From assembly GCF_046119375.1 (NCBI RefSeq), contig NW_027362765.1, forward strand, positions 129,580,001 to 129,644,000: a stretch of 64,000 nucleotides of DNA, read 5' to 3'. Numbering within the stretch: position 1 is the stretch's first letter; every line of letters begins with the position of its first letter. This DNA comes from Phyllobates terribilis. Taxonomy: Eukaryota. Shown here piece after piece: positions 4,188-60,278 of the stretch. Made by a program: the position numbers and the translations under genes. The notes below the pieces were generated by a model. It was given only the letters and a program-made list of their open reading frames with translations. It did no database searches and was not told the DNA's origin.

Positions 4188-4532
4188 TAGCCGGCAGACA
4201 TATGTAGTATGGTGGGCTGGGGGCGACCCCGGCATTTATGCGGTGTGCAGTATTACAGGAACAGGGAGCAATTGTGGGGACCCCTTGTAAGAGACAGAAT
4301 GGGCAGAACAAGGAACACAGAGACCTGCAGGGAATTTGGAGTTTGCATTAAAAATGGGGTGTGCTCATTCTGAGATATGTTACTGCTGTGAAAAAGAGGT
4401 GGGGGGGCACCCAGGGGAAAGGTGCATTCATTGGGAACCTTACACTTCAGGAGTGTGGGAGGTAACAGACTGGTAAGATTTTTTTTTTGGTTGGGGGAGG
4501 GGGTTGCACTTACTTTTCATGGTCAGGGTTGT

Positions 4533-6906: not shown

Positions 6907-7476
6907 TTTGTGGAATTAGTGAGCACCCATTGGTTAAACTGTTTGGGGAGGCACACACTGATTAGATTTGTGGAGCTGGGGGTCATGTTTAGATAGAAGA
7001 GGGGGCAAACACGGAAAGTTTGGTAAAGTCACCAAAATATTATTTGAAACAAAAAGTATATTGCAGAGTTCTAGAAGACTTAATTATCTACTGATTACAG
7101 GGGTTCTCCAACTTTGAAAAAAAAAACCATTTTTTTCCAGTGACAGGGATGGATTTACAACACTAAAATGATGTGGACTCACCAGCCGTAGCCCCAGTGC
7201 TGGATGATGTCCCACTCTTCAGTCATCTGGCTGCTGAGGCCTATGATTGACTGCAGTGGTCAGGTGTCCTAAGAGCTGAACATTATTGCTTCCTGTTTTG
7301 ATGAAGGCCACTGGAGCATTGGGCCATGGGGGCTACAGTAGTTAGCATTAATTTTAAAATCATCCTTGCCATTAAAAACAATTTTTAGTGGTTGGAAAAC
7401 CTACAGGAAAACTGGGGAAAAAATCTGCCTTGAGTTCTCCTGAGTTTAATGTGACTTTCTGTTCTTTCGGCATTAG

Positions 7477-19548: not shown

Positions 19549-20551
19549 TGTGACACCCCAGGGGTCTGGTTGCCACAGTGATAGAGATATTACGTCTGAG
19601 AGCAGGTGGGAGGTCCTTTGGTCAGGGATCCTGTGCATGCGACACCTCCTGCCCAGTCTTGGGAGGGGAAGGACTTCCCCTATATAAACCCGGGGCTGAG
19701 GCAGAGTTAGGGAGAAAGAAGACAGAACAAGAGTAGAGAAGAGAAGCAGCATAGCAAGAAACATCAGGAGCTCTGTGGGGAGCAGTGTTACAAGGAGTCA
19801 GGGGCTGGCAGCTACAGAGCTCGCCCTGACTGAGAAGATTTCTTACCGGACCCGGAGTCCGAGGCTGTGGGGACTAACTCCTACCCAGCAGCAGAAACCG
19901 TCCGGCAGAGGATTTCAGGTCCTCTGGCCCAGAAGCCCGAAGGCACGGTCACACGCGTGGGACCAGCACCGCCATCGTGGAGCGGAAGCCATTAGAAGGC
20001 CCCGAGTCACCGGCCATACGGGTGAGCACCACACGGTACACTCAGGGACGTGGGCTACTTATTCCCGCCTCTAGCAAGGTAGCCAGAAGAGTACAGTTAG
20101 TTGGGAAGGCCTACAACTCCGCCTGGCCAGGGGAGATCCCATCTGCTCAAGGACTGACCAGGCCCCTATCACTAGCAAGTACTCCGGGAGGGTCTATCTT
20201 TGTCACCAGTAAAGACCCTGAACTACACCGCACCGTTTCTGAGTGGTTCCTGCTACCCCCATCATCCACGTCGGCTGCCCTGAGGCCATACCCCTCCCGT
20301 TGGGGGTTATACCATCCACGCTGCACCATCCTTCCACCGGCCTCAGTGGTCTGCCCTGCAGCGGCAGCTCCATAGCTGCATTCAACGGGTGGCGTAGTCA
20401 CCAACCATCTACTGCTAGTACATCGCCGCTCAGTTTGACTCCCTGGGCGCGGACCGGGTCGCCGCCACGAGACTACAACCCTCAAGAGATCCGGCTCCGG
20501 GTAAGCTCCCGCGTGCGCAACGCAGCGCGACACAGGCCCAGGGGCGCGTCA
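19549..20551 (+). repeat. Gypsy 5' LTR (1003 bp, TG..CA)
   Basis: Direct repeat of 26433-27416. TATATAAA at 19681; AGTAAA at 20208. Confidence 0.93.
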
Positions 20552-20555
20552 ACTT

Positions 20556-20573
20556 TGGCGTAGTCGGCAGGAT
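20556..20573 (+). promoter_or_regulatory. Primer-binding site complementary to tRNA-Ser
   Basis: TGGCGTAGTCGGCAGGAT is the reverse complement of the vertebrate tRNA-Ser 3' end (..ATCCTGCCGACTACG-CCA); it lies 4 nt after the LTR. Confidence 0.92.
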
Positions 20574-20990
20574 TTCGTGCCCGCAACCACCGGGTACTGC
20601 GTGCCTGAAAGAGACTTTTCAAACTTACCTGTGGTGAAGATTCCCGCCATCCGGCGCCATCTTTAGCCTTCTTCCCGCCATCGGTGAAGTTTCCCGCCAT
20701 CCGGCGCCATCTTCTGCCTTCTTCCCGCCATCCGTGGAGTTTTCCCGCCATTGGACGCCATCTTGAGGACGCCGCGCGGGAAGAAGAGGGGCGTGGACTC
20801 CGAAAGCGCGCGAGAACTGAAGCCCCGCCTCACGTCCGGACGTTGCGTAAGGTCCTGGAAGGAGCCCAGCAGACGCCGACGTCACAGGAGCGCGACGGAA
20901 GGTCCTCAACCCTGACGATCCACTGCGGAGCCGCGGCCTACGGAAGAGGATCATCGCAAGGTAGGTCACGGTCCACTAGGGGGGAGGAAG

Positions 20991-21971
20991 ATGTCGGATA
21001 CGGAGGAGAGCTTCACTGCCTCAACCCCCGCCAGCGCTACCGCTGCTGCAGTTATGCCCTTCACCATGCCCTATATCCCGGGAGCAGCTTGGCTACCCCA
21101 GTACTCAGGGGAGTCACATACCCTGCATGACTTTAGAGAAAAGCTGGATAGCCTCTTCCAGGTGTACCCCCTCACAGAAGAGCAAAAAGTGAGCATCCTG
21201 GTGGCCCAACTAACCGGGGCAGCCAAAAGGGAAGTAAAATCCTGGCCACCTGGGAGGAAGACTGTCGCAGGGATACTAACCCGGCTGAAGGACACCTTTG
21301 ATACCCGCACCTCAGCCGAGATTAAGCTTAGATTCTATGGGTGCAAGCAGCGAGCGCATGAGAGTATAAGGGACTATGCACTAAACCTACAAGAGGCCCT
21401 GAGGGCCATAAAGCAGACCGACCCTGATGGGGTGGGAAACGAGGACAGGCTGTTGACTGAACAATTTATAGAGGGTTTATATTGCAATGCCCACCGAACC
21501 CAGTTGCGGGCAATGGCCTTACAGGATCCCCATCTGGACTTTGCACAGTTCAAGGACAGAGCCATCCGGGTGCTCCGAGAACCGGCACCGGGTGGCGTTG
21601 TGACCCACAGGCGCCCAGCTATCACTTACCACCAGGAGGCGGCGCCCTTGTCGGCAGGGCCTGTGGGAGCTGATGCGCAGGCTTTGGACAATGACCCGGC
21701 TCCAGACCTACGCCATCAGGTCCAAGAGCTAGCTAAGAGCGTTGCTGCGCTAACCCGAACTGTGCAGTCTTTACAGGTTTCCACCCCAGGGAAGATCCAG
21801 CTGGCATCCGGACCGGAGGACATCCCGTGGCGTCGACCAAGGAGGACCCCACCGGCCAGAGGAAGACCCAGTGACCGATACAGCGAGGACGGACGACCCA
21901 TCTGCCGCCGCTGCAATCAACCCGGACATATGGAAAGGTACTGTTCTTTAAACGGGCACAACCTGGGGTAG
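20991..21971 (+). CDS. gag: Gypsy Gag (326 aa)
   Basis: Capsid-like region (PQYSGE..LTGAAKREV..KQRAHESIRDY..FIEGL) and CX2CX4HX4C knuckle CRRCNQPGHMERYC. Confidence 0.93.
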   Translation: MSDTEESFTASTPASATAAAVMPFTMPYIPGAAWLPQYSGESHTLHDFREKLDSLFQVYPLTEEQKVSILVAQLTGAAKREVKSWPPGRKTVAGILTRLKDTFDTRTSAEIKLRFYGCKQRAHESIRDYALNLQEALRAIKQTDPDGVGNEDRLLTEQFIEGLYCNAHRTQLRAMALQDPHLDFAQFKDRAIRVLREPAPGGVVTHRRPAITYHQEAAPLSAGPVGADAQALDNDPAPDLRHQVQELAKSVAALTRTVQSLQVSTPGKIQLASGPEDIPWRRPRRTPPARGRPSDRYSEDGRPICRRCNQPGHMERYCSLNGHNLG

Positions 21972-24900
21972 AGGGCCAACCCCCAGGAAAAAGATCACCA
22001 GGCCCATCGAACTGGCGCGACAGATATGTGGGAGGACGTCCAGTCTTGCCTGTGGTACTGGATGGCATTCCCATGAGTGCCCTACTGGACACCGGGTCAC
22101 AGGTCACCACTATCCCGTACGTGCTCTTTAAGCAGTACTGGAATGACTCGGATATTACCCGCTACCCTGACGACGACTTGAGTATCATCGCCAGCAATGG
22201 CCAGCCCGTGCCACAGATCGGATTTAAAGAGGTGACCATCAAAATCGGTAGAGTCGAACTGGCAGCACAGGGACTGATCATTGTAGACATTGACAAACAT
22301 GAGAGCCACCCAAAAATAACTCTAGGAACTAATGTAATTGAGAATTGTCTTGCAGAGGTGATTTTCCTTCTACAGCAGGTTGCCAAGAACGCCAGCTCCG
22401 GCGAGCAGCGAGTGCTCCAGAAAGAGATCCGGGCACTGATGCGACGGCAACAGGTGGAACTCTCCGGCGGTGAGATTGGTAGCGTAAGAATGTGTGACCC
22501 TTTTCCTATTGCCATGCCCCCAAAAAGCGAAATGATGATTTGGTGCCGGGCAGCTATTGGTCTGAGAGGTAGAGATTACCAGGCAATGGTAGAACCAGTT
22601 TACTCAGACAGTAGGCCCACCATTTTGACAGCACGGGGGGTGGTCAATGTACGCCATGGGAGGGTGCCCGTTCGCATAATCAATATCGGGGAGAGGGAAG
22701 TGTACCTGCCCCGGTATGCCACGCTAGCAAAATTATATACCATCAACCAAAACTCTATACAGTCTGTGGAACCCTTGCCTCCATCTCACCCGGAGGAAGG
22801 TAACGGCTCTAAGAAAGTAATGGAGGATTGGTGTCAGCAACTACACTTGGGAACTGACTCCACTCCCTCCCACCAGAAACAGGGAGTCTACCGGGTGGTT
22901 CAAGAGTATGAGAGAGTGTTTAGTAAACACCCGTTAGACTTCAGGCGAGTCAAGGGGGTAGAACACCGCATCCCCACGGGAGATCATCCTCCCATAAAAG
23001 AGAGGTATCGACCCGTACCCCCTGCACATTACCAACACGCCAAGGGGATGCTTAGAGACATGAAGGAGGCTGGGGTAATCCGGGATAGCTGTAGCCCCTG
23101 GGCAGCCCCGCTAGTTTTAGTCAAAAAGAAAGACAACACCATGAGGATGTGTGTAGATTACCGGAAAATCAACCGTATCACACACAAGGATGCGTACCCC
23201 TTACCAAGGATAGAGGAGTCATTGGCTGCTTTAAGATCTGCTAACTTCTTCTCTACCTTGGATCTCACTAGCGGGTACTGGCAGGTTCCTGTAGCAGAGG
23301 CGGACCGGGAGAAGACCGCATTCACCACCCCGATGGGACTTAGTGAGTTCACCTGCATGCCGTTCGGACTCTGCAACGCCCCAGGAACCTTCCAACGATT
23401 AATGGAGTGCTGTCTGGGCCACAGAAACTTCGAGACGGTCCTGTTGTACCTGGACGATGTCATCGTATACTCCAAAACTTATGAGGACCACCTGAAACAC
23501 CTGGCGGAGGTGTTCGAAGCTCTGGCGAGTTACGGCCTAAAGGTGAAACCCTCCAAGTGTCACCTCCTGAAACCAAAGGTGCAGTACCTGGGACACGTGG
23601 TGAGCGCTGACGGAGTGGCTCCCGACCCCGATAAGATCACCGCAATTAAGGGATGGCCAAGCCCCTCCAGCGTAAAAGAAGTGCGGCAGTTCCTCGGGTT
23701 GGTAGGCTACTACCGAAGGTTTATTCCCGGTTTCACCAAAAAGGCAGCGCCTATGCAGGACCTCCTGATAGGCCAGTCCCGGAAGGCCAAGAACCAGAAG
23801 CCGCCCTTCAAATGGGAAGAGCTAGAAGAAGAGTCCTTCCGCCAGCTGAAGATGGCCCTCACGGGGGATGAAATCTTGGCGTACCCGGATTATAGCCAGC
23901 CCTTCATCCTCTACACCGACGCCAGTAACATCGGGCTAGGAGCCGTACTGTCCCAGATCCAGCAGGGGAAAGAACGAGTAATCGCCTACGCCAGCCGAAA
24001 ACTGCGACCCACCGAAAGGAACCCCGAGAATTATAGCTCATTTAAGCTAGAGTTCCTGGCCGTAGTATGGGCAGTCACTGAGCGCTTTAAGCATTACCTT
24101 GCTTCTTCCCGGTTCACCGTGTACACGGATAACAACCCGTTGACACACCTGGACACGGCAAGACTCGGTGCCCTGGAGCAGAGGTGGATGGCCCGTCTGT
24201 CCAACTACGAGTTCATAATCAAATACCGGGCAGGGCGCTCCAATACTAACGCGGACGCCCTGTCCAGGATGCCCAACCTGCCAGACGAAGGAGAAGATCC
24301 GGAGGGACTGGAAGAAATTGAACTCCCTGCGTTCCACCGTCATGGGACTATCCAGTATTCCCACCGGGTAAGGAGTAAGCAGGCTGCTACGTTGAACCCC
24401 TTACCTCACTACAACTGGGCGGAAACGCAAGACAGCGACCCTGCCGTCCGACTGGTGAAGGAGATGCTGACTCGGCCGGAGGCTCGCCTTGAACCAGACG
24501 CTCCGGAGGAAGCCAAACAACTATGGGCAGAGAAGAGTCGACTGTTCCTTTACAAAGGGAAGTTGTGCCGCAGAATGGTTAACTTCCGGACGCATGAATT
24601 ACTCTGGCAAGTAGTGGTGCCACGAAGAGACGCAGCCATGGTGATGGAGGCATACCACGACGGAGCTGGACACTTCGGGTGGAAGAAGCTGGAGTTCCTG
24701 CTGCGCGAGCGATTCCACTGGGTAGGCATGAGGGGAACCATTGAGAAGTGGTGCAGAGACTGTGGCCCGTGCAACCTGAGAAGGAAGGACCGCGCCAGCC
24801 AGAAGACTCCCCTGCAGTCCATCGTCACCCGGCAACCGTTGGAACTGGTAGCCTTGGATCATGTAAAACTGACCCCAAGCAGAAGTGGCTACGTCTACGC

Positions 24901-26083
24901 GTTAACCATCGTGGATCATTACTCCCGGTTTCTGGTTGTCGTCCCCGTCAAGGACTTAACGGCTCAAACAGCAGCTAGAGCCTTCCAGCAGCACTTTTGC
25001 CGTCCACACGGGTACCCGGACCAAGTGCTGACGGACCAGGGACCTGCCTTTGAAGCGGAGGTCTTCCAGGAATTCTGCAATCTGTATGGCTGCCGGAAGA
25101 TAAGGACGACACCCTACCATCCGCAGACTAATGGACTTTGTGAAAAAATGAACCAGGTGGTAATGGATCTTCTAAAAACATTGCCCCTGGAAGAACGCAG
25201 TCTGTGGCCTGAAAAGTTGCCCGATCTGGTGGACCTATACAACCACATCCCGGTAGGTTCCACCAACTGTACCCCGGCTTACCTAATGAGGGCAAGACCT
25301 GGTAAGTTACCTGTTGACCTGGAAATGGGAGTCCTGACACCCGAGGACACTTCACCAGAAACAGACTGGGACACGGAGAGGCAGCAGCAGTACCGGAGAG
25401 TACAGGAGAGCGTGGAGCGAAGTCTCTGTCAGGCTAGGGAAAGACAAGAGAAAACTTACAACCAGTATGCTCCCGCTGTTCCCCTGGTACCCGGAGAGCA
25501 GGTCTTGAAGAGGAAGAGACGGCTCCACAAGTTGGACGACCAGTGGGAGAAGGACCCGTACACCGTACTGCCCTCAAGCCACGAAAACCCGAAGGTCTGT
25601 ACCATCAGTAAAGACGGAGGGGAAACCACAGCCATTGTATCCCGGGACCACCTGAAGAAGTGTCCCGAACAACTGAGGAACCCTGAAGAGGAACAAGAAG
25701 ACCATCGACCCGTAGAGGAAAGGGAAGATATGGTTAGTACCGTGCTCGGGGACTTCCCTCGGTCTTGGACTCAAGTCAATGGTGCAGTTGTGGTACCCGT
25801 ACTCACCTTCCTCCAACCATCATCCCAAGAACCTACGGAGCAACCGGTAGAGCTGGAAGAACAGCCGGTCCAGGAGGCAGAAGACTCTACACAAGCAGAC
25901 CAGGAAAATCAACCCTCTGCTTATAGTGAGCATGCCATACCCCTAGTGAGCCAGAGGGCCCATGGACAGCTGCCCAGTTTACCCTTGGCAGCTCCTACAC
26001 CCTGTAGTTCAGGGCCAGACAGTCAGCTCCGTAGGTCCACTAGGGCCACTAGAGGCCAGCTACCCGCACGTTGGAGGATCTAA
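21947..26083 (+). CDS. pol: Gypsy Pol, expressed by -1 frameshift from gag (ORF track 22028-26083, 1351 aa)
   Basis: Protease LDTGS, RT YLDD, RNase H YTDAS..EFLAV..TDNNPL, integrase HHCC plus D,D,E (ALDHV, TDQG, LCEKMN). The -1 frame is open from slippery TTTAAAC at 21947. Confidence 0.95.
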   Translation, partial: FKRAQPGVEGQPPGKRSPGPSNWRDRYVGGRPVLPVVLDGIPMSALLDTGSQVTTIPYVLFKQYWNDSDITRYPDDDLSIIASNGQPVPQIGFKEVTIKIGRVELAAQGLIIVDIDKHESHPKITLGTNVIENCLAEVIFLLQQVAKNASSGEQRVLQKEIRALMRRQQVELSGGEIGSVRMCDPFPIAMPPKSEMMIWCRAAIGLRGRDYQAMVEPVYSDSRPTILTARGVVNVRHGRVPVRIINIGEREVYLPRYATLAKLYTINQNSIQSVEPLPPSHPEEGNGSKKVMEDWCQQLHLGTDSTPSHQKQGVYRVVQEYERVFSKHPLDFRRVKGVEHRIPTGDHPPIKERYRPVPPAHYQHAKGMLRDMKEAGVIRDSCSPWAAPLVLVKKKDNTMRMCVDYRKINRITHKDAYPLPRIEESLAALRSANFFSTLDLTSGYWQVPVAEADREKTAFTTPMGLSEFTCMPFGLCNAPGTFQRLMECCLGHRNFETVLLYLDDVIVYSKTYEDHLKHLAEVFEALASYGLKVKPSKCHLLKPKVQYLGHVVSADGVAPDPDKITAIKGWPSPSSVKEVRQFLGLVGYYRRFIPGFTKKAAPMQDLLIGQSRKAKNQKPPFKWEELEEESFRQLKMALTGDEILAYPDYSQPFILYTDASNIGLGAVLSQIQQGKERVIAYASRKLRPTERNPENYSSFKLEFLAVVWAVTERFKHYLASSRFTVYTDNNPLTHLDTARLGALEQRWMARLSNYEFIIKYRAGRSNTNADALSRMPNLPDEGEDPEGLEEIELPAFHRHGTIQYSHRVRSKQAATLNPLPHYNWAETQDSDPAVRLVKEMLTRPEARLEPDAPEEAKQLWAEKSRLFLYKGKLCRRMVNFRTHELLWQVVVPRRDAAMVMEAYHDGAGHFGWKKLEFLLRERFHWVGMRGTIEKWCRDCGPCNLRRKDRASQKTPLQSIVTRQPLELVALDHVKLTPSRSGYVYALTIVDHYSRFLVVVPVKDLTAQTAARAFQQHFCRPHGYPDQVLTDQGPAFEAEVFQEFCNLYGCRKIRTTPYHPQTNGLCEKMNQVVMDLLKTLPLEERSLWPEKLPDLVDLYNHIPVGSTNCTPAYLMRARPGKLPVDLEMGVLTPEDTSPETDWDTERQQQYRRVQESVERSLCQARERQEKTYNQYAPAVPLVPGEQVLKRKRRLHKLDDQWEKDPYTVLPSSHENPKVCTISKDGGETTAIVSRDHLKKCPEQLRNPEEEQEDHRPVEEREDMVSTVLGDFPRSWTQVNGAVVVPVLTFLQPSSQEPTEQPVELEEQPVQEAEDSTQADQENQPSAYSEHAIPLVSQRAHGQLPSLPLAAPTPCSSGPDSQLRRSTRATRGQLPARWRI

Positions 26084-26423
26084 ATGTTTAAGCTATCTTA
26101 TAATGTTTACTTGTTTATAGTTGCTTGTGTATAATTTTGTGTTTCTAGTTCTTTTTAGGAGTCCTTGGTGGATTTACCGGGAATCCTTGTACATAGTTGG
26201 AGCGTAACCCAGGATGGACTAAAGACTGTTAAGGACTCGGGGCAGGACAGGCCCCTACCTGGTTACGTCTCCCTGTTTTGGTGAAATGGACACCTTGCTT
26301 TTCAAAACTGCACCCGGTTGCGGACACGCCGTAACCATCTTATGTGTTTTTCTTATTGTATTGTTATACCTTGTTATGTTTTTCTAAAAAAATATGTTTA
26401 GTCCCAGAGTACTAAATTTCACT

Positions 26424-26432
26424 AGGGGGGAA
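26424..26432 (+). promoter_or_regulatory. Polypurine tract
   Basis: AGGGGGGAA immediately before the TGTGAC start of the 3' LTR. Confidence 0.85.
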
Positions 26433-27416
26433 TGTGACACCCCAGGGGTCTGGTTGCCACAGTGATAGAGATATTACATCTGAGAGCAGGTGGGAGGTCC
26501 TTTGGTCAGGGATCCTGTGCATGCGACACCTCCTGCCCAGTCTTGGGAGGGGAAGGACTTCCCCTATATAAACCCGGGGCTGAGGCAGAGTTAGGGAGAA
26601 AGAAGACAGAACAAGAGTAGAGAAGAGAAGCAGCATAGCAAGAAACATCAGGAGCTCTGTGGGGAGCAGTGTTACAACGAGTCAGGGGCTGGCAGCTACA
26701 GAGCTCGCCCTGACTGAGAAGATTTCTTACCGGACCCGGAGTCCGAGGCTGTGGGGACTAACTCCTACCCAGCAGCAGAAACCGTCCGGCAGAGGATTTC
26801 AGGTCCTCTGGCCCAGAAGCCCGAAGGCACGGTCACACGCGTGGGACCAGCACCGCCATCGTGGAGCGGAAGCCATTAGAAGGCCCCGAGTCACCGGCCA
26901 TACGGGTGAGCACCACACGGTACACTCAGGGACGTGGGCTACTTATTCCCGCCTCTAGCAAGGTAGCCAGAAGAGTACAGTTAGTTGGGAAGGCCTACAA
27001 CTCCGCCTGGCCAGGGGAGATCCCATCTGCTCAAGGACTGACCAGGCCCCTATCACTAGCAAGTACTCCGGGAGGGTCTATCTTTGTCACCAGTAAAGAC
27101 CCTGAACTACACCGCACCGTCTCTGAGTGGTTCCTGCTACCCCCATCATCCACGTCGGCTGCCCTGAGGCCATACCCCTCCCGTTGGGGGTTATACCATC
27201 CACGCTGCACCATCCTTCCACCGGCCTCAGTGGTCTGCCCTGCAGCGGCAGCTCCATAGCTGCATTCAACGGGTGGCGTAGTCACCAACCATCTACTGCT
27301 AGTACATCGCAGCTCAGTTTGACTCCCTGGGCGCGGACCGGGTCGCCGCCACGAGACTACAACCCTCAAGAGATCCGGCTCCGGGTAAGCTCCCGCGTGC
27401 GCAACGCAGCACGACA
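26433..27416 (+). repeat. Gypsy 3' LTR (984 bp, lacking the terminal ~19 bp)
   Basis: Colinear with the 5' LTR without indels; five substitutions seen by eye. Confidence 0.93.
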
Positions 27417-30020
27417 CAGGCATCGCAAGACCTTAGGTATTCATGGTTATAACCACTAGCAGCTAGCTAACTGACTATCAGTGGACGTAACCATGGATAC
27501 CTAAGGTCCTGCAATGCCTGCACATAAGAAAAGACATAGCGAATCAAAAATACTATACATTTCTATTTGTAGGTATTTGCTAATATTATTACACCTACTA
27601 CATATTGGGATAAGATCTTGGAGATGGGAATACCCCTTTAATCTCATAAAGGTGTCCCTGCTGTGTACTGTGTTATGGCCGTGTCTGACCGTACAGGGAC
27701 ATGGTCTGATCATACCACAGCTCCTGGGCAGGGGAGGAAGGAAAAGAGTATACTGATAGAATCATTTGTGATCCCTGCTATCCTTTCTTTGAAGTAAAAC
27801 ATTGTTAAAAATAGGCAGTGTAATGTTTTACCTCACAGAAAAAATCCTGTAATTCCCGGCTGTAATGTCTGTATACTCTTTTGCGTCCTCCCCTGCCCAG
27901 GAGCTGTGGTATGATCAGACCATGTTCCTGCGCGGTCAGACACAGCCATTACACAGTACACAGCAGGGGCACATTTATAAGATTATCTCAGCACAGGAAC
28001 ATTTTATTCACACACATCCAATTGTGGAAGTTATTATTATTCCAAGATGTATTGATTAAAATAAACTTTTGTCCATGGGGAAAATCCCTTTAAGTGTGGA
28101 TTATATGCATTTTTCATGAGTTTCTGCCGTGGAAACGCATGTGCGTTTTCAGCATGCGGATTTTCCGCATCTAATGCCAGTCTATGGGGAAAATTCCCAC
28201 AGAAATATCCACGTACCCACAAGAGAAATCAACATTCTGTGGATATGAAACGCACCGCAGGACAGTTAATCCTGAGTAAAAAAAAATAAAAAAAAATAGC
28301 AGTGGGCTGGAGATTTCTATAAATCTCATCCACTGTGCTGGATAAGACGCGGTGTTTTGACGCAGCAAAAATACGCAGCGTCAAAAACGCTCCAAAAGCT
28401 CATTGGGAGAAGGTCGCCTAAGGCCATCTGCACACGTTCAGTATCTTACATCAGTATTTGTAAGCCAAAATCAGGAGTGGAACAATCAGAGGAAAAGTAT
28501 AATAGAAACACGTCACTTCTGTATTTATCACCCACTCCTGGTTTTGGCTTATAAATACTAACCAAATACTCAATGTGTGAACATGGCCTAAAGCCCCCGT
28601 CTCACATAGCGAGATCGCTGCTGAGTCACGGTTTTGGTGACGCAACAGCAACCTCACCAGCGATGTCGCTATGTGTGACACTTTGCAACGATCAGGCCCC
28701 TGCTGTGAGGTCGCTGATCGCTGCAAAATCTCCTGGACCATTTTTTGGTCGTTGCCCTCCCGCTGGTCAGCACACATCGCTGTGTGTGACCAGCGGGAGC
28801 AGCGATCAGGCTGGTAACTATGGTAAACATCGGGTTACTAGGGGCACACGCGCACTTAGTAACCCGCTGTTTATCATGGTTACGAGCCTGCTAAAGTGAG
28901 CGCTCACCGTAGCAGAGTGGTAACCATGATAAACAGCGGGTTACTAGGGGCACGTGTGCCCCTAGTAACCCGATGTTTATTATGGTTACCAGCCTGCTCC
29001 TGCTTCAGCAGGCTGGCAACCAGGAGCTGGACATCGTGGAAAGATTCTTTCCACGATGTCGCTGCTCCCCTGATCGTTGGTGAGCCTGCCTGTTTGACAG
29101 CTCACCAGCGACCACATAGCGACGCAGCAATGATCCCTGACAGGTCGTATCGTTGTCTGGATCGTTGCAGCGTCGCTAAGTGTGACGGGGCCTTAAGTCT
29201 TTGTTCCCACACACCATCTCAACTGCTCGCTCCTGCAGAGGGATTTACTATTGTGAAGGGATGGGGGGATATTTTGCCGCACTTTCCATTACAGGGTGAG
29301 ATTTCGTATGTACATTTACAGCATAAATTGAGATGTTACATTTTGCCTCAGATATATTTCGCAGCATGTTGTTGGCACTGTAAGTCGCAGCAGAGTTTGC
29401 TGCAGTGGATGCGCTGTGTTTTCGTAGCATGGACACTTAGGTCATCTGCTGTGGACTTTCTGCAGCATAAATGCCTCTGTGGATTATGTAGCCTCCTACG
29501 CTGCACGTCACATTGTCGCAAGGGGTAAAAGCTAAAAGATCATTGTCCGATATTGTTACAATCCACAATTTCCAGTACACATGCATAAAATAGAATGAAT
29601 GTAGGTATGTCCGGTTTATTGTTCTGAATAGGCTCAGTTCTGCATGTCTCATTCACAAGCGTAGGACAAGGGCAGAACCTGCTGCAGAAAACCCACTCCA
29701 TGTCAATATATGGTGGTAGACAATCAATGTTCAATTAGTCATAGAGACACTTGTGATTGTAGCGCTAGTTACAATGTACCAGAGTTGTGCCTGATAATGG
29801 CAGCTTCTGAGCTACTCTCACCTCATTTATAATTGTAGGAAACTGGAGCTGAACTTTCTGGTCGTAAACCAGCTTAGCGCTGAGGTTCACTGACTGGTTC
29901 TCAGATTATTCATTCTGCAGCCAGTGCAACATAAGAGCTAGCCAAAAATATATGCATTTATATCGTTTTTTTCCCCCCCGAAAGCTTTCGTATGCAAAAA
30001 GGGTATTCTACAATCCTTAA

Positions 30021-31791: not shown

Positions 31792-33053
31792 TTAATGCAG
31801 AATTACAAGCTCAATCGGGTGTAGTATATGTGGAAATATCCCTCCCTAGATAGAACATAAAGCTCTATCAGACAGTCGGTACAATGCCTTTTTTAATGGA
31901 ATATTTGTACAAGTAGAAAACAAACCCTTTTATATGCCTCCAATGAAAGTTTCTTATGAGGGCGCCATCAGATTGACACACCTATATACATAATATTTAA
32001 GTTTCCATAAACTTAGAGAAGAGCCCCAATTCATCATTGCTGTTGCACCAGTTTTTGGGAGTAATTTGCTCCTTGTTAGAGGCTGCTATATTTGCACCCT
32101 ATTCTTCATATATTTTGTATTTTTAACTTTTTTCATTTTGCTCTTCCACATGTGAATCAATCTAATATAACATGTGACATACCAAACATTCCATTTTCAT
32201 GCATCTCACTCCAGCTCCTACCAACAAAACTGCACGCAGGTCTTAAAACATACTTTTGTTGAGATTAAAAAAAATATATATCTATATCTATATCAGTGGT
32301 TTTATCGTCTATTTTTTCATCTCATTAAAAGTTAGTTTTATGAGACTTGCATGCACCGTTTTGTTGGCAGTACATTCAGTGGGTGCATCCCCAGTCACAT
32401 ATTGATATCACATATGTTCTAATATTCACTCCGCTCCTGTCTGGAGTGAGGTTTCTGGAGGAGTTTTTAATGTGGGGCACCTTTAGACAAATGTTCTACT
32501 TACCAATTGATTTGACACTTGGTGCTGAATAGCTATAAAAGACTTTAATTTACACAAAAAGTTCTCATGAGCCACATGCACAGTTTTGAAGAATTTGGCG
32601 CACAAAGACTCCTGGCCTAAATTGTCCAAACATAACAGGCCATCTTCACATGATTGATTATGTGAACCAGAAGGCAGCTGTTCTTTATATGGATACATCT
32701 CCAACATTCTCTACCCAATGGGAAAGACAGCTCTAACTGTGAAATGTATAGCACGTGGATGCGAATGAATACAAAGGAAGCATTTGTTTCACACATTTAA
32801 TCCATAGTTCAGTTTTGGTTGGCGATCACTGTCTAGATATTATAGCATTCATTTCCCAGACTTTCCTGCACTTTTTACCTTTGTGAGATTTACTGTTTTT
32901 TCCTAAAACTTTTTTGTCTTTTGTATTTTAACTTGTAAAATCAGATAATCCCATAGATTGGATGGTGACCAGGTATGACATCTGAACATCAGACACAACA
33001 ATGAGATGTAGGTGAAAACTCAGGATCCACCTTTCTGCTACACTGGATCTAAA

Positions 33054-34060
33054 ATATGCACATATTCTCTTCTCAAATAGGACACTAGTCCCCCAAGAAA
33101 AGACCTGAAGCGAGTATTTCAACCTTAAAATCAATACTTTATTAACATATATTAAAACAAATCACAGTGCTTCACGAATACGAATGGGCAAATATTTGTA
33201 TGAATCCTATTGATACTCAAGGTATATTGTATTCTGGTTTGCAGCATAAAGTTTGCAATTGTAACCTATTTCTGTCCCCACATAATAAGATAATTTGTGC
33301 AGTGGTGATCACTATTGGTTAATGTGATATAACGTAAGAATTCAAGTGCTGTTAAATACACAAATTAAGGGACTACCACTGTTAGGCTTATGAACCCATG
33401 GGGAGGTGTCCTAAAGGGATAAAGCATGGAAACCAATTGTCCGCAACGAAGCAGCACAAAAGTGGAACCAAAAACTAAAGGGAACTAAATGGAATACCTG
33501 GATCAGTGTAATAATGCTGTCGACAGCATTATTACACTGATCCAGGTATTCCATTTAGTTCCCTTTAGTTTTTGGTTCCACTTTTGTGCTGCTTTGTTGC
33601 GGACAATTGGTTTCCATGCTTTATCCCTTTAGGACACCTCCCCATGGGTTCATAAGCCTAACAGTGGTAGTCCCTTAATTTGTGTATTTAACAGCACTTG
33701 AATTCTTACGTTATATCACATTAACCAATAGTGATCACCACTGCACAAATTATCTTATTATGTGGGGACAGAAATATGTCATAAGCAATAGTGATTATCA
33801 CTGCATCATTTATCTTATTATGTGGGGACAGCAATAGGTTACAATTGCAAACTTTATGCTGCAAACCAGAATACAATATACCTTGAGTATCAATAGGATT
33901 CATACAAATATTTGCCCATTCGTATTTGTGAAGCACTGTGATTTGTTTTATCTAATTTTTAATATATGTTAATAAAGTATTGATTTTAAGGTTGAAATAC
34001 TCGCTTCAGGTCTTTTCTTGGGGGACTAGTGTCCTATTTGAGAAGAGAATATGTGCATAT
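33054..34060. repeat. ~1-kb near-perfect palindrome without spacer
   Basis: Centre GCTGTC|GACAGC at 33521/33522. The arms are reverse complements to ~33054 and ~34060. The right arm carries a ~58-bp internal duplication. Confidence 0.93.
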
Positions 34061-35197
34061 GTTATATGAGTTAAACAACCGATAGCAATTTTCAGGATTC
34101 CATGTGTGGAACTTTGTTGGTAATACTGGATCTAAAATGCAAGTTATGGTACATGTGTGTGTATTTTAGTATGGCCATATTCTCCCTGCAATATTGCTGA
34201 TGGCCAAGATGCATTGGGGCACATGCAGTGCAACTGAATTAAAAAGAATGGCACTCTGACTAAGGACCAAGTCTACCCTGTTCAGATGTTTGTCTTAAAA
34301 GGTTCAATACTTTCAACCCTAACCTACATAAGGGGTGCAAAAATTAGTCTAAATGGAGTTAGTAGCCATGCTTGCCAACATTGCAATGAGCAATATCACC
34401 ACCTATACATATATGCTATTCCAAGAGATTGCCAGAAGACATGCTTTGCTTAGCCTTTCAGGCAGAGAACAAGTTTAGTGTTCATGCACTCCTGTCACAT
34501 GGATGGTTAAACCTTTGCACCGAAGACTTTAAATATGCAAATTGCCAAATCAGAGGAAGAGGACTAGAACTTTATCGCCATCAGAGTTCTAGTTCTCTTC
34601 CCCTCTGAAGGAGGAATTTGCTTATCTAATTTGCCAGAGGAGCATTGCATGCCTTAACAGTCTCCTCACATTGGCATGCCAGGCTTGGCATGTCACTCTC
34701 CACAAGAGAATGTTACCCCTTGGATCCCCCTGAAGACTTTGAATGGCATATAAAGCCATATGCACATCCTGCCACTTCATTCAACTCCTAGCCACTGTTT
34801 TTCTGCTTGTAGAGAACAGACTTGTGTTCCCAATTCTGGCAATAGGAAAATAGTTTTATAGGTTGGATTAACACCAATCTAACCAGTTATCACCTATACA
34901 GTCCAGTCTAAACTGGGTGAAGGGAGTGTCAACACAGTGACTGTTCAAACCAACCATGCACACTTACCTTACCACCCCACTTGTTTTTCATCCCTTTTCT
35001 GGCTCTTGTAAAGCCAGAGCTTTCAATTAAGGGTGAGGGGGTGTAGAAAGATGCAAAACAGGCAGGTGGGAAGATGCACTGAACTGTGCAGCCACACAAA
35101 CAGGTGCACAGAGCATCTGAGCTTGGTTTGAGCAGTCATTTTATGCTGAGTGCAAGAGGGTGGAATAAATATATGGCACAAGTCAAATGGTTGTAGA

Positions 35198-52510: not shown

Positions 52511-53869
52511 TTAAAGGGAACCTGACAGCTGATTTGTGTTGCAATAACTATGGGCAGCATGAATCAGAGTCCGGCTCCATGATTTCAGCCAAGTAGGTTT
52601 TATTCTGAAACACTGCAAACATACATTTAAAAGCCGGCCGAGAATTATGCTATATGACTAGTCCAAGAGGTCAGTCCTCCGCTTCTTCTCTTGGACTAGT
52701 CACCTGAATGGCTCGGCCGGCTTTTTAAGGTGTGTCTTTCTCTGAAACGCAGCAGCACTTCCTAGTATTCCTGACTGAACTGTGCCAGTGTCTGATACAT
52801 GCTGTCAGCGGTTCGGGTTCATTTCACTTCAAATGCTCCAACTAGGAGTAGATGTAGATTTGCTGCAAAATTGCTCCATTTCTGGCTGTAAAGGGAACCT
52901 GTTATCAGGATTTTATATCCCAAACTAATAACATGTGGGTAAACCCCCACTATCAGTATTTGGTCAGTATTGGGTTAGTATTTTTTCTCAGGAGTGGGAG
53001 CCAAAACCAGGTGAGGAACAATCAGAGAAAAGGTATAATAGAAACAAGTCACCAATTCTGGATTTATCACCCACTCCTGGTTTTGGCTCCCACTCCTGAG
53101 AAAAAATACTGACCAAATACTGATAGTGGGGCCATGGCCTCATGCTGAATAAATCCTCACCTTTCTTGTAGAATCCTTTTTGCCGTTTTAGGCTACGTTC
53201 TCACAATGAGTTTTTGGTGCATTTTTGACGCTGCATATTTTCCCTGAGAATAAAAAAAAGCAGCGTCGTACAGTTCCAGCACAGTGGATGGATTTCTAGA
53301 AACCTCCTGCCCACTGGGCTTCCTTTTTACTCAGCTAAAACTGACCCGCGGTGCTTGTCTCATATCCACTGCATGACAATTACTCTTGCGGGTACTCTTG
53401 AGTTTTCTGTGGAGATTTTCCATTAGACTTACATTAGATGCGGAAAATCCACAGGAAAAAAACTCAAGTAAACCACACATGACTGTATCAATAAAGTTTT
53501 ATCAAAGCCAAATACCAGGAAGTATCAAAAACAAAGCAGCTTTATTTAAAACATGACACACCAACAAGACACAGCTTTAAATCTGATGCAAATGAGTTGC
53601 AAGCACAGCGGGGTGGGACAATGCCCCTGCCTCTCTCCTTATTGCCCACCCACCTCCTACCAGTGACCTCCCCAAGGTCTCTCACCAGCTCCGCCATTGA
53701 CTTGGGGTGGGGCATGTGCAGATTAATTGTCCGGCTTTCATCTTTCTGATATGAGGAAAATCCACAATACACCAAATTATTAGGAGGTGTGAAATTCTTA
53801 AGAAATTTACAGCAATTCGCTCTGTTATATTTGTGTATGAAACTGTAAGAAACACATACTTGTCGCTTG

Positions 53870-55806
53870 TGTAGCGCCCCGAGGGCTCGGTTGCTACAGG
53901 GGTATTGCACCTCAAACCAGAGGTGTGATATTCCACTCCCGGGTAAGGATGGAGTGTGGACCAGGGCTCAGTTAGCTGCACACACACACACACACCCCAT
54001 ATCCGGGGGACAGCTCGACGGTGCTCCCAGCTGCGGGCACAACTGACCATGTCCCTGGTTGGAGTGGGGAGGGGGGAGGGAACCCAGTGGTGTAGGAGCA
54101 GAAAGGGGACGGTTCCTGGAGCACAGGAATGAGCTCATTGGGTGCAGGTCACCTGAGCTCAGACACAGAGAAGTAGATAAAAGGTGGGAGCCATCTCAAG
54201 TCGAGGAGTGGAGTGGAGAGAAGTAGTTCAGTCAGAGCTGACAGGGAGCCGCGGCTCAGCCTGAGCTCAGCTCCACGAGGCAGGCCTAGAGAGAAGGCCA
54301 GGGCCAGAGAGGAGAAGAGAAGAAGGAGAAGGAAGGAAGGAGAAGAGACAGAGGAGTGGAAGGGCTCCAGAAACAAGAAGGCAGAAGGGACTCTAAGAGT
54401 GCAGAACGGTCAGCAACCGTTGCATACCCCATTATACCGGGTAAAAGGGTCAGGCTGTGAAAAGGTACCGGATCCCTAAGTTGGTGGAGGCGAATCTACC
54501 CTCAGCCAAGAACCGGAGGTTGTGACCATTTATTGGTGCGACCCCCCCCTGTAATGCAGCAACGTGCTTGCATTACGGTAATGGTCTAGGATGTGTTTTA
54601 CTTGACCATATACCTTTCCCTCAGCTGACTGGTCACATGACTGTGACATCATACAGGTCCTGTATGCACAGTAAAGGTCTGTACACATGACTGGGACAGC
54701 ACACAGGACCTATACACACAGCTGACTGATCACATGACTGTGACATCAGAAAGGTCCTGTCAGTATGTGGGTGTGTGTGCACAGGATATATAAACCCTGG
54801 TAATTTGAGACAGGTGTGTTCGGTGTGAGGCCTGTGCTCCGTGTGTGTGGGACACCGTTTGTGAGAGGCCGAGAGTGAAGCCTGGCAGCCTGAAAGGCTG
54901 AGCCTGGATCCTGTGCGTGGATGTCAGTGGCCTTTGAGGGAGAGCCGGCTTGGTGTTGAACCCTGAAAGGCGCAGGCTGGATGTCAAGTGTGGAAGACAT
55001 ACCAGTAGTCTACGAGGGGTCGACGGCTAGAGACCCCCACCTGGGAAAGCCGCAAAGCCACAGTGGTGGCGGAATAAACGGACTGTAGCAGCCAAAACCC
55101 GCTAAAGGTAAAAACGCTGCGTTATAAGGACATTTATGTTGTTGCCTAGCCGAGGGCTATAACGGGAGCCAAGTGGACATATCTGTCGCTGGAAAGGCTC
55201 CCGAATTGTGATGTGTGTAATATGCCGGTCTGCCACTTGAGAAGCTCCCGGAGGTGATAGGTGTAAACATGCCGGGCGTATACTAAGATGGACTGTGTGA
55301 TTAGCGGTTTATGACGAAATAATAAACTGCATTGTGAATTATCGGAAGGACATTGCTTATGTGCCTTAATTGACCCGGGGGTTGACCGAGCTCCTCACCT
55401 GGTGGACGCAGCACGGCTCGGGCAGTCCTTGCTGACAGAAGTGACTTGGATAACAACTGTGAGTAAAAGACCCTGGACTGCATCATTGGCCTCTGTGTGA
55501 TTTCTGCTGCGCCTGCACCATCACCCCCAGCATCCACTTGTACTGCCCTGAGGCTACACTCTTCCCGTGGGGAGTTATCCTACCCCAGTGCTGCACACCA
55601 ACACCAGCCTCAGCGGTCTGCCTCGCAGCGGCGGTTATCCCTGACCGCAATCCACGGGTGGCGTAGTCGGACATTCAAAACACTGATAAATAGACTGACA
55701 CAATTTGGTCTGACCACCCTGAGCCACGGGATCGGGTTGCCACTACTACCCCCAGCATCGTACAGAAGCCCGGTTCCGGGTATCCCACGGCCCAGGGGGC
55801 GAATCA
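53870..55806 (+). repeat. 5' LTR (~1.94 kb) of the CSD element
   Basis: Starts TGTAGCGCCCC and ends CCCAGGGGGCGAATCA, 5 nt before the PBS. TATATAAA near 54786; AATAAA at 55321; AGTAAA at 55462. Confidence 0.8.
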
Positions 55807-55818
55807 GCTTTTGGTGTA

Positions 55819-57376
55819 CAGTCATGGCCAAAAGTTTTGAGAATGACACCAAAATAATATTTTCACATGATCTGCTGGCCTCTGGTTTTTATTAGTGTTT
55901 GTCTGATGTTTATATCACATACAGAAATACAATTGCAATCATATTATGAGTACCAATAGGTTATATTGACAGTTAGAATGAGTTAATGCAGCAAGTCAAT
56001 ATTTGCAGTGTTGCCCCTTCTTCTTCAAGACCTCTGTAATTCTCCCTGGCATGCTCTCAATCAACTTTTGGACCAAATTCTGACTGATAGCAGTCCATTC
56101 TTGCATAATCAATGCTTGCATTTTGCCAGAATTAGTTGGTTTTTGTTTGTCCACCCGTCTCTTGATCATTGACCACAAGTTCTCAATGGGATTAAGATCT
56201 GGGGAGTTTCCAGGCCATGGACCCAAAATCTCTATGTTTTGTTCCATGAGCCATTTAGTTATCACCTTTGCTTTATGGCTAGGTGCTCCATCATGCTGGA
56301 AAAGGCATTGTTGGGCGCCAGGCTGCTCTTGGACAGTTGGGAGAAGTTGCTCTTGGAGGACATTCTGGTACCATTCTTTATTCATGGCTGTGTTTTTAGG
56401 AAAGACTGTGAGTGAGCCGATTCCCTTGGCTGAGAAGCAACCCCACACATGAATGGTTTCAGGATGCTTTACAGTTGGCAAGACTGGTGGTGGCGCTCAC
56501 CTCTTCTTCTCCGAATAAGCTGTTTTCCAGATGTCCCAAACAATCGAAAAGGGGATTCATCAGAGAAAATGACTTTGCCCCAGTCCTCAGCAGTCCACTC
56601 CCTGTACCTTTTGCAGAATATCAGTCGGTCCCTGATGTTTTTTCTGGAGAGAGTGGCTTCTTTGCTGCCCTTCTTGAAACCAGCCCTTGCTCAAAGAGTC
56701 TCCGCCTCACAGTGCGTGCAGAAGCTCTCACACCAGCCTGCTGCCATTCCTGAGCAAGCTCGGCACTGCTGGTAGTCCGATCCCGCAGCTGAAACAGTTT
56801 TAAGATACGGTCCTGGCGCTTGCTGGTCTTTCTTGGGCGCCCTGGAGCCTTTTTGACAACAATGGAAGCTCTCTCCTTGAAGTTCTTGATGATGCGATAG
56901 ATTGTTGACTGAGGTGCAATCTTTGTAGCTGCGATACTCTTCCCTGTTACACCATTTTTGTGCAGTGCAATGATGGCTGCACGTGTTTCTTTAGAGATAA
57001 CCATGGTTAACTGAAGAGAAACAATGATACCAAGAACCAGCCTCCTTTTAAAGTGTCCAGTGATGTCATTCTTACTTAATCATGACTGATCGCCAGCCCT
57101 GTCCTCATCAACACCCACACCTGTGTTAATGCATCAATCACTAAAACGATGTTAGCTGCTCCTTTTAAGGCAGGACTGCAATGGTGTTGAAATGTGTTTT
57201 GGGGGTTAAAGTTCATTTTCTGGGCAAATATTGACTTTGCAAGTACAGTAATTGCTGTTAAGCTGATCACTCTTTGACATTCAGGAGTATATGCAAATTG
57301 CCATTACAAAAAATGAAGCAGTAAACTTTGGAAAAATTACTATTTGTCTCATTCTCAATACTTTTGGCCATGACTG
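55819..57376 (-). mobile_element. Tc1/mariner DNA transposon, DD35E spacing (Traveler-like), inserted in the PBS
   Basis: TIRs CAGTCATGGCCAAAAGT(T/A)TTGAGAATGA, with TA duplicated (55817-18, 57377-78). Confidence 0.93.
55996..57004 (-). pseudogene. Tc1-family transposase pseudogene (DD35E)
   Basis: MVISKETRAAII.. with two frameshifts (~56650, ~56480). Motifs FSDESPF, QHDGAPSH, SPDLNPIE with 35 residues between D and E. Confidence 0.88.
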
Positions 57377-57734
57377 TAGTCGGCAGGATCGTGACCAACC
57401 CGCCACAAACGGGTATTTCGTGCCTGAAAAGAGACTGTTTCACTGTATTGAATGTGGCGCCCGCCTCAGCAGAACGGACGCCATCATGTGCGCGCCAAAA
57501 GACCACAGGAAGCCACCGCCCATCGTGGGCCAGGTCCCAGAAAGGCGCCAAAGACGGAGCCCACCCCCAACAGCCATGAGTGTGGCTGTAGAGATGTCCA
57601 TCAATGTGGGGGGGCTGCCCCTGAGAGTGATTGTCAGCAGGTTGCCCCGGGACCACCCCCAACAGGGACAGAAAGAGAAGAAAACCAGGGGGCAGGGTGT
57701 GGTTTGGATCAGTCTCACCAGATCACACCCGGAG

Positions 57735-59012
57735 ATGGAGAGGAGCACCAACTCCAACACCCTGGCAAGCGGCCTGCTGCAGGCCGAGGCGTCCCCGTAC
57801 AGCCTCACGGAGCTGATGGCTCAGCTCCCCGCAGAAGACCCTGAATTCCTGCGGACAGCACTGGAGGAGCTGGATCGGAGGATGGTCCGGGCGCAGAGGG
57901 AAGTCATCGCCGGATGGAGGGAGGAGATGGCTCGGCGGGTCGCGACCCGGCAGCAAGAGACGCTGCCAGCACCCGGCAGTGTGCCTGCTCCCGAGGACAG
58001 AGAGAGGAGACCGGAGGGCGAGTATTACGCTGCCGCGGAGGCAGGTAAGGCGGACACCCCTGCCCCGGGTCCTGACGCAGTAAGCTTACCCCTGGATCCT
58101 GCCGCTGAGCCAGAAGTCCCGGGAGCCTCTGCAGCTTCCACGCTCCCGCCGCATACACCTGGGCCTCAAGCCGCGAACTCCGCCGCTGAACCACGCCCCA
58201 CGTCGTGCCCCCTGACGCCGGGTGCGGTCGGAAGCGGCCCGCTCCAGGCCCGGTCGCAAGCCCTGACCTCCCCAGGCGCCTCCCAACCCCGTGTGCCCCT
58301 GGTCCCGAAGCTACCACCCCTTGGGACTGACCTGTACAGCCAGCTCGCCGGACCCGATGGAGAGCCGGTCCCTGTACCAGAGGGATGGGTTCACCCCAGT
58401 CAGCGGAAAAACCTGGCCGCAGAGGCCCCGCTTGCTCCGCTCTTGCCCCTACCACAGCCAGTCGTCGTCTCTCAACTCCCGGAGGAAGAGGTCCAGATAG
58501 GATGGGACCAGAGTGGGGAGGATGTGATGGGGTTTGCGCAGGAGACGCGGGTGGCCGCAGCCCGCAGGCAGGAGGTCTGTGAGCAGCTTGAAAAGGAGGA
58601 GCGGGCGCGGTGCCGGAAGAGGGAGCAGCTGCAGGCCCGGAGCGCGGAGGAGAAGACACGAACCCGCCAAAACCCTCAGGCTGCACGTGGTCTTAAAACT
58701 GCTGGGACCGTGGTAAGATTCCATCAAGAAAAAGGGTGGGGGTTTATCCGGGACTCTGCCACAGCCACAGACCTCCATGTTGACAGGAGGGATGTGGAGG
58801 GTCACCTGCCAGCGGGTCTCCCGAAGCGGAAGTTGTTCCCGGGAGATCGGGTAATATACACCCGACATCGAGGCCTGAAAGGGTGATATGCCCTCAATGT
58901 CCAGAGGGTGGAGGAAGAGTACTACCGTGAGCACTACTACCCAGATGACCCGGACGGGTCTGGAGAGTATGGCGAGGAGGAAGAGCGTGCACAAGGAGGA
59001 CACAGTTATTAA
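57735..59012 (+). CDS. Retroelement ORF: helical N-terminus, Pro/Ala-rich linker, basic coiled segment, cold-shock domain (58704-58910), acidic Tyr-rich tail; one in-frame TGA at 58884-86
   Basis: GTVVRFHQEKGWGFIRDSATATDLHVDRRDV..LFPGDRVIYTRHRGLKG*YALNVQRV follows the CSD pattern (CspA GIVKWFNADKGFGFI..DVFVH..L.EGQKVSF..G.KGP.A.NV). The start codon is uncertain; the frame is open from 57291. Confidence 0.75.
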
Positions 59013-59776
59013 AATGTGAGTGCACTGTAGATAGTTGCCCATTAGGGTACAGAAGAGAAAGTTCACCCCGGATGGGGACTGTTGCCTGTATGTCGTTTGA
59101 ATAACCGGCTGAGGACTGGGAGCAGCCAACTTAGTGAACTATCCGGCCGAGGACTGGGAGCGGTCAACTTTGTAAATATTTGCACTTCTTAAAGTGCCCC
59201 CTACTGGTTTTATAAGAGACTACAGCAACAACTGACCTCAGAACAAAAACCCGTTAGAGGTGGCTGAAGACGAGGTCCAGCAGCTGGATCAGCTACGCCC
59301 TGCAGCCACCCCAGGGCCTTCGTTGAGGGTTTACGAACGGGTACCTCATGTTTGTGTTTACAAGTTTGCATTTTATAAAAAGATGGACACCTGGTCGCAA
59401 AGCGCACTGTGACCAGTTAACAAAAGTTTTACATGAAGAATGTTTATAAGAAAAATGTTTTATATGTGACAAATGTGATTATAAAAGTGAAAAGAGTTTT
59501 ATAATGTTTTATATATGTGAAGAAAGTCTTATAATAATTGCTGAAAGAGAAAATGTGCCAGTAACGTTAAAAGAGAAGAATTGCCTCCCATAAAGGGATG
59601 AGTAATAATGGTTTACCCCCCCGCTAAACCTGCTAGGAAGGCACCATATAGGATAGCGGGAAGCGGAGGCCAACGCTTACCCGACACGGTCCGCGGTAGC
59701 CGGACAGAAGTCAGGACACTGGTCGGGCACGAGAGGCCAGAGAAAGGACAGAAGGGGGTCCTGTGCCATACTCCTG

Positions 59777-60207
59777 AATTGCCTGGGGGTTGACCGAGCT
59801 CCTCACCTGGTGGACGCTGCACGGCTCGGGCAGTCCTTGCTGACAGAAGTGACTTGGATAACAACTGTGAGTAAAAGACCCTGGACTGCATCATTGGCCT
59901 CTGTGTGATTTCTACTGCGCTTGCACCATCACCTCCAGCATCCACTTGTACTGCCCTGAGGCTACACTCTTCCCGTGGGGAGTTATCCTACCCCTGTGCT
60001 GCACACCAACACCAGCCTCAGTGGTCTGCCTTGCAGCGGCGGTTATCCCTGACCGCAATCCACGGGTGGCGTAGTCGGACATTCAAAACACTAATAAATA
60101 GACTGCCACAATTTGGTCTGACCACCCTGAGCCACGGGATCGGGTTGCCACTACTACCCCCAGCATCGTACAGAAGCCCGATACCCCATGGCCCAGGGGG
60201 CGAGTCA
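59777..60207 (+). repeat. 3' LTR remnant of the CSD element (last ~430 bp only)
   Basis: About 97% similar by eye to 55368-55806; ends CCCAGGGGGCGAGTCA followed by the TSD. Confidence 0.85.
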
Positions 60208-60278
60208 CTTGTCTGAGAGTTCCCAGGGCTCCTGAACAGAAACAAGCAAGGGCTACATAAAAGTGGGTGTTCTCAGGT

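Follow-up and report, generated by a model that had tools for sequence, protein, structure and literature searches.

We analyzed a 64-kb stretch of the genome of the poison frog Phyllobates terribilis (assembly GCF_046119375.1, contig NW_027362765.1, positions 129,580,001 to 129,644,000, forward strand; hereafter, the window), which contains a long terminal repeat (LTR) retroelement with a single open reading frame (ORF) encoding a cold-shock domain (CSD) (Table 1). An initial annotation, made from the DNA alone, described this locus as an LTR element bounded by target-site duplications, with a tRNA-Ser primer-binding site, and both features were recovered in our analysis. The primer site is complementary to the 3' terminus of tRNA-Ser genes from the same genome plus CCA, with 18 of 18 bases matching in intact copies of the family and one mismatch in the window copy; ARAGORN called tRNA-Ser at two of the three genomic sites that were retrieved, and the intact copies have exactly this 18-mer as their primer site.

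The window copy is a dead, rearranged member of a high-copy LTR family. A foreign LTR of ~830 bp stands where ~150 bp of its 5' LTR (~1.27 kb in intact copies) are missing, a Tc1 transposon was inserted at a TA, which was duplicated, and a deletion of ~780 bp removed the polypurine tract together with the first ~680 bp of the 3' LTR. Because of this deletion and the replacement in the 5' LTR, the two LTRs have only 443 columns in common (94.8% identical). A transposon of the same Tc1 family (96.9% identical) was also found inside another CSD element (L092:6749-8327).

Table 1. Positions in the window of the CSD element, its parts and the likely helper type
Feature	Position	Strand	Remarks
Intact autonomous Gypsy, likely helper type	19549..27421	+	gag, protease, reverse transcriptase, RNase H and integrase; LTRs 99.5% identical; same tRNA-Ser primer site
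Left target-site duplication	53866..53869	+	CTTG
LTR element (window copy)	53870-60207		TG...CA ends, between the CTTG copies
5' LTR, interrupted	53870..55806	+	own parts 53870-54550 and 55364-55806; aligned to natural copies
Near-complete foreign solo LTR (FXR1-KH family)	54550..55378	+	identity to the LTR pairs of L158-L162 93-95%
tRNA-Ser primer-binding site, split by Tc1	55812..57389	+	halves 55812-55818 and 57377-57389
Tc1/mariner DNA transposon in primer site	55819..57376	-	transposase broken; Pfam DDE_3, HTH_Tnp_Tc3_2; inverted ends
Single ORF, 508 codons	57486..59012	+	in-frame stop 58884-58886; no capsid, CCHC, protease, reverse transcriptase or integrase
N-terminal long helix, conserved	57841..57957	+	predicted, coordinates approximate; sibling-copy model H89-126; dN/dS 0.10-0.48
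Charged helix of ~40 residues preceding the CSD, conserved	58539..58670	+	predicted, coordinates approximate; sibling-copy model H81-121
CSD	58701..58907	+	Y-box-length loop between strands 3 and 4
3' LTR remnant	59617..60207	+	polypurine tract and first ~680 bp deleted
Right target-site duplication	60208..60211	+	CTTG

The one long ORF reported in the initial annotation is present as a single frame, but in the window copy its in-frame stop falls within the CSD. The CSD itself was recognized by Pfam (PF00313) above the curated cut-off (31.4 bits versus 27; E = 1.7e-7, with the stop read as X), and when the last 206 residues of the protein of a sibling copy were modeled, a 40-residue helix followed by the CSD strands was obtained (pLDDT 84-90 in the strands), in a predicted five-stranded oligonucleotide-binding (OB) fold with CspA (E = 4.5e-6), CARHSP1 and YBX1 as the top Foldseek matches. 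The aromatic residues of ribonucleoprotein motif 1 (RNP1) are mostly retained in the element CSDs. The RNP2 motif DLHVD, singled out in the initial annotation, does occur in the window copy but is a private variant, the corresponding region reading DVFV, DLYV or EVFV in other lineages. The absence of capsid, CCHC, protease, reverse transcriptase and integrase motifs, also noted initially, agrees with our searches: no Pfam family besides the CSD matched the window ORF at E<=1, and CCHC was lacking from all three element ORFs checked. No Rfam family was found in the three elements scanned. An origin of the ORF from Gag was considered and rejected (hhalign probability 0.8%; no capsid fold in the N-terminal model, for which confidence was low, with a mean pLDDT of 58).

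A DNA search of the 10.6-Gb genome with the CSD region returned 2146 first-look candidates, 40 of which were scored and corresponded to the window copy and 39 others, 88-94% identical. The window copy belongs to a high-copy family of ~4.4-5.0 kb LTR elements with a tRNA-Ser primer site and a polypurine tract. The Pfam CSD search of the genome gave 33,380 candidates, which are not copy numbers, and 150 of them were scored. Thirty loci were opened, comprising 21 of the element type, eight CSDE1-like loci and one YBX-like pseudogene. Loci L051-L056 (G000:C1:734435000-734454999) are tandem intronless CSDE1/UNR-like retrocopies, distinct from a CSDE1 on C2 (L057, L058) that apparently contains introns. 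Paired repeats (>=900 bp) were present in 44 of 58 loci (fetched at 6-10 kb), with an exact 4-bp target duplication in 20 of these 44 paired loci, many of the others being without the right end in the fetched stretch; the homologues in this genome are flanked by LTRs and 4-bp target duplications. Of the 42 element interiors that could be tested, none matched the gag/pol of the window Gypsy, and in the eight of 58 loci with any Gypsy gag/pol match, that match lay outside the LTR pair or on the opposite strand. Complete copies without gag-pol bear out the non-autonomous reading given initially: the family members are non-autonomous LTR retrotransposons, presumably mobilized in trans, and do not carry the gag and protease-reverse transcriptase-RNase H-integrase genes of autonomous Ty3/Gypsy (Metaviridae) elements. 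Recent activity of the family is evident from ten copies (L081-L090), selected because their reading frames are long and open: the two LTRs of each are 99.8-100% identical, and 591-606 codons can be read from the ATG. Assembled contigs of four sequencing runs, the type of which was guessed, cover the element but also flanking repeats, and are no guide to its expression.

The CSD elements fall into at least two families. Family A, which contains the window copy, has LTRs of the type TGTAGC...GCGTCA or GAGTCA, and one of its branches has a different primer site, TGGCGTCACGAACAGGAT, which we take to be that of another tRNA-Ser. Family B (L120-L136; ~4.4-4.6 kb; LTR pairs 97-99.7% identical) has LTRs of the type TGTAAT...CTTACA and shows no DNA similarity to family A, from which its LTRs are unrelated, yet it has the same tRNA-Ser primer site. 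Its protein begins with an arginine-rich, protamine-like segment, and the CSD, which is central, scored 24 bits in Pfam, under the 27-bit cut-off. Older CSD relics were found without LTR context (L110, L111, L163 and L164); L110 and L111 form a local cluster of divergent relics (G000:C4:791.50-791.52 Mb) in which the RNP2 His is retained. Head-to-tail arrays of two to three units sharing LTRs are common (L035, L091, L096 and L125), with match spacings of ~3.6 kb.

Selection was assessed with the ratio of nonsynonymous to synonymous substitution rates (dN/dS, Nei-Gojobori count) between natural open copies, in pairs that are not independent. The initial annotation had proposed this comparison, and the ratio proved to be far below 1 among CSD source lineages: 0.05-0.32 in 10 of 13 family-A pairs, the other three being saturated, and 0.10 in the single family-B pair. 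CSD differences at codon positions 1, 2 and 3 numbered 36, 30 and 104, respectively, in four disjoint pairs. Both helices were mostly constrained, and the proline-rich linker had values of 0.38-0.79. The hypothesis that the CSD is a passenger, with only an open frame selected for RNA stability, would fit the fast evolution of this linker, but the amino-acid constraint is strongest in the CSD itself, in two families without mutual DNA similarity; this explanation is largely refuted, and we consider it extremely improbable.

Among 29 copies of the window's subfamily, with one tandem twin dropped, CSD variants had a dN/dS of 0.53 when singletons, 0.24 when present in two or three copies and 0.12 when present in at least four. 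Singleton values were 0.53-0.79, and copies gain stops after insertion. Because dN/dS falls as variants become common across copies, selection acts on the source elements, with copies decaying after insertion. This bears on whether the protein could serve the host, like the BHIKHARI Gag in zebrafish development, the spread of the element being a by-product. Precedent exists in the available part of PMC12067270, where young non-autonomous elements carry an ORF that the host requires, and in four dendrobatoid species related ORFs have been given gene annotations. However, the decay of copies after insertion (stops and the singleton ratios above) is not what a host function would predict, and no old, fixed, intact locus was seen among the loci opened, so that we regard a host role as very improbable.

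A host Y-box gene is the likely source of the CSD. When 12 CSDs representing all lineages were combined, the resulting profile matched YBX1/2 with 55-57 bits, gapless over 69 columns, versus 42 bits for the best bacterial Csp, 20 for Lin28, 18.5 for CARHSP1 and 16 for CSDE1. In trees of 75 columns, which were built without an intact frog YBX sequence and were the only analysis to include element CSDs of other species, the element CSDs formed one clade (support 86/86 with 31 rows, and 96/98 after dropping five long or short rows). A search for an intact host YBX with a pseudogene as query returned only the query itself. In the viral fold library, generic Csp proteins were the only matches, at 22-24% identity, with no sign of a viral donor, and the ESM Atlas returned only CSD clusters under 0.9 for the CSD part of the protein. 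The element CSD shares with YBX1 and YBX2 (FRGY2) the fold, the RNP1 motif, the long loop between strands 3 and 4 and the gapless 69-column alignment; it differs from them in being ~30% identical and intronless, in the replacement of the strand-1 Trp and mostly of the RNP2 His, and in its C-terminal (family A) or central (family B) position after long helices.

The Gypsy element of the window has the LTR ends and the primer site of the CSD elements, and a similar leader. In locus L137 (G000:C1:579516061-579522060), a family-A ORF is flanked by the LTRs of this Gypsy (89-97%) and followed by the last ~310 bp of its 3' untranslated region (UTR), including the polypurine tract (94%). At least 40 near-identical copies span the L137 junction (40 of 40 scored matches near 100%). 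This is the pattern that would be expected from template switching between co-packaged RNAs, and the recombinant points to the window Gypsy type as the likely helper. The initial annotation had proposed a resemblance between the 3' UTR of the window copy and that of the Gypsy, but the longest common word there is 11 nt, a length reached in 33 of 500 simulations and thus not above chance; the likeness is genuine in the L137 subfamily, and it is not significant in the window copy.

The Gag of the window Gypsy has a zinc knuckle of its own (Pfam match below the cut-off), so that substitution of the CSD for nucleocapsid, as suggested initially, would be unnecessary. The same observation bears on the idea that the CSD acts on DNA or reverse transcription, either as an annealing chaperone for strand transfer in helper particles or as an LTR transcription factor. 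CSDs do bind single-stranded DNA as well as RNA, as the titles of PDB entries indicate, and recombinants and tandem LTR-sharing arrays are frequent; with a zinc knuckle in the helper Gag and no particle-entry signal found in our analysis, however, we judge such a role improbable.

The foreign LTR inside the window copy led to a second gag/pol-less family, with 5392 first-look candidates in the genome. In all five paired loci fetched (L158-L162), this LTR bounds an element of 4.7-6.5 kb with one long coding region, open for ~990 codons in L158, and in none of the five was there a match to the gag/pol of the window Gypsy. A 4-bp target-site duplication was found in L159 and L160, and the primer site differs from that of the CSD elements (TGGTGGAGAATGCGGGCA in L160). 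The 6-bp LTR ends of this family equal those of CSD family B. In the protein, a coiled-coil-like region is predicted, and Pfam recognized an FMRP KH0 domain (KH_9, E = 1e-24), which lies within an FXR1-derived KH0/KH2 module in which KH1 is deleted and no Agenet domains were detected. The best host matches of the module were FXR1 proteins of hyloid frogs (38% identity), a relative of the protein occurs in Ranitomeya variabilis (P0176), and no match was obtained in the ESM Atlas for the FXR part. A genome search with KH0 gave 3582 first-look candidates, and dN/dS in the module was 0.48-1.74 (five close copies with few changes). This family is a parallel capture of a host RNA-binding module in the same genome.

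FMRP and FXR proteins are linked to Argonaute/Piwi pathways, and the FXR1 family therefore bears on a further explanation, in which the CSD protein would be an anti-silencing factor or a decoy acting on host RNA control (Y-box messenger ribonucleoproteins, small-RNA silencing) and freeing both the element and its helper from repression. Such a function would agree with the truncated FXR1 module of the second family and with the loss of YBX-typical residues from the CSD, as might occur in a dominant-negative protein. A diffusible benefit would nevertheless also reach cheats without the ORF, yet selection sits on the source lineages, and we consider this explanation unlikely.

Our preferred reading, which we hold to be moderately probable, is that these gag/pol-less elements are copied by tRNA-Ser-primed Gypsy helpers and that their CSD, likely Y-box-derived, acts in cis in germ cells, as a chaperone of the RNA that encodes it. 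The preference for action in cis would follow from the fact that amino-acid selection on a helper-dependent element needs a benefit that returns to the encoding copy. The 5' LTR would make one RNA serving as both mRNA and genome, and the new protein would bind this RNA preferentially through its CSD, possibly oligomerizing via the long helices. FRGY2 masks oocyte mRNA, and the bound element RNA could be stabilized or stored, as by proteins of the YB-1/FRGY2 type. Helper Gag would then package it through the common leader, helper reverse transcriptase would use tRNA-Ser and the polypurine tract for priming, and the 4-bp duplication would come from the helper's integrase; co-packaging with helper RNA could give rise to template-switch recombinants such as L137. 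According to the available parts of the respective papers, host YB-1 contributes to retroviral RNA levels and to the production of particles (PMC6040738), and Gypsy elements are highly expressed in the ova of the poison frog Oophaga (PMC6278860).

The structure, spread and recent activity of the elements, the selection on their CSD and the recombinant with helper LTRs are established here, whereas expression, RNA binding, cis preference and packaging are inferred. Several observations weigh against this reading. The strand-1 Trp of YBX is absent from all 12 element rows, and only two of the 12 retain the RNP2 His; both are RNA-contact residues of the CSD, and with their replacement binding may differ or be weak. 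In L081-L084, dS was 0.99 in the CSD versus 0.24 in the linker, and such strong regional differences imply that recombination distorts the dN/dS ratios, although CSD dN was still below linker dN. The LTR of the window copy's own subfamily is only ~75% identical, over 147 nt, to that of the window Gypsy, and no helper was found for this subfamily. As to the origin of the CSD, a profile of family A only ties YBX1 with CspA (35.3 versus 34.6 bits), the first tree places the Y-box-type rows outside the element clade, and the second joins them to it with a support of only 46/80.

Replication-defective transducing retroviruses keep their cis signals, have a gene of host origin in place of their coding region and depend on a helper. 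The CSD elements resemble them in all three respects, and differ in that they are germline elements of the Ty3/Gypsy type in which no env was seen and which have long since diversified into several families, under purifying selection. Other close parallels are zebrafish BHIKHARI (Bik-1 and Bik-2), Xenopus 1a11 and Xretpos, which are LTR-bounded and multi-copy, with one long ORF, no pol and a presumed helper (available parts of PMC12067270 and PMC4585706). However, the ORFs of Bik and 1a11 are described in those parts as Gag or Gag-like, whereas the ORF of the CSD element shows no likeness to Gag and carries a cellular RNA-binding domain. The bdelloid elements Vesta and Juno also carry cellular domains (ORF3: GDSL esterase, DEDDy exonuclease), but, as far as the available text of PMC5408684 goes, the capture lies beside an intact gag-pol, whereas the CSD ORF is the sole gene of its element.

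An exhaustive protein profile search gave 1229 proteins at E<=0.001, those among the 150 listed being mostly tandem-CSD proteins, whereas word-index searches found no relatives or only the query. Nine of the 150 listed proteins were looked up, and six were element-like, from P. terribilis, R. variabilis, R. imitator and Anomaloglossus baeobatrachus; the element-like homologues named are thus all dendrobatoid, among these nine and in annotations that mask repeats. All six are annotated only as "uncharacterized" or "CSD domain-containing", and in the tree the P. terribilis database protein is nearly identical to a young subfamily of the genome analyzed here. No LTR element encoding a CSD or an FXR1 module was found in the literature, although Repbase, Dfam and supplementary repeat libraries could hold such families unnamed, and the words "cold" and "cold shock" do not occur in the available text of the frog-genome papers, PMC5408684 (main text) and PMC10516033. 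The CSD-bearing LTR family is thus real, active, selected and, apparently, undescribed.

Elsewhere in the window, we observed a GC-rich minisatellite of ~70 units of 34 bp (4397-7000), a further Tc1-type transposase fragment (15384-16046) and a near-perfect palindrome of ~1 kb (33047-34067; 95-98% complementary), which is likely a miniature inverted-repeat transposable element or a head-to-head insertion.

Non-autonomous LTR elements usually carry nothing or Gag only, whereas here a selected, likely host-derived RNA-binding domain is found in a vertebrate element, retained in several long-diverged, still-active families and paralleled by the FXR1 family in the same genome. Gene models described as "CSD-containing" or "FXR-like" in poison frogs can therefore be transposons. 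In P. terribilis, 62.6% of reads fall in unclassified repeats, according to the available part of PMC12208295. We suggest, tentatively and as a possibility that we ourselves regard as doubtful, that poison frogs harbor a guild of helper-dependent LTR satellites in which gag-pol has been replaced at least twice by host RNA-binding modules (a YBX-type CSD and FXR1 KH), and that with these modules the elements may gain control of mRNA storage or silencing in the germline, outcompete the helpers and add to the giant, largely unclassified repeat content. The finding makes it possible to test how a parasite of a parasite wins the machinery of its helper and persists in the germline, and whether the genome gigantism of poison frogs is partly due to such families.

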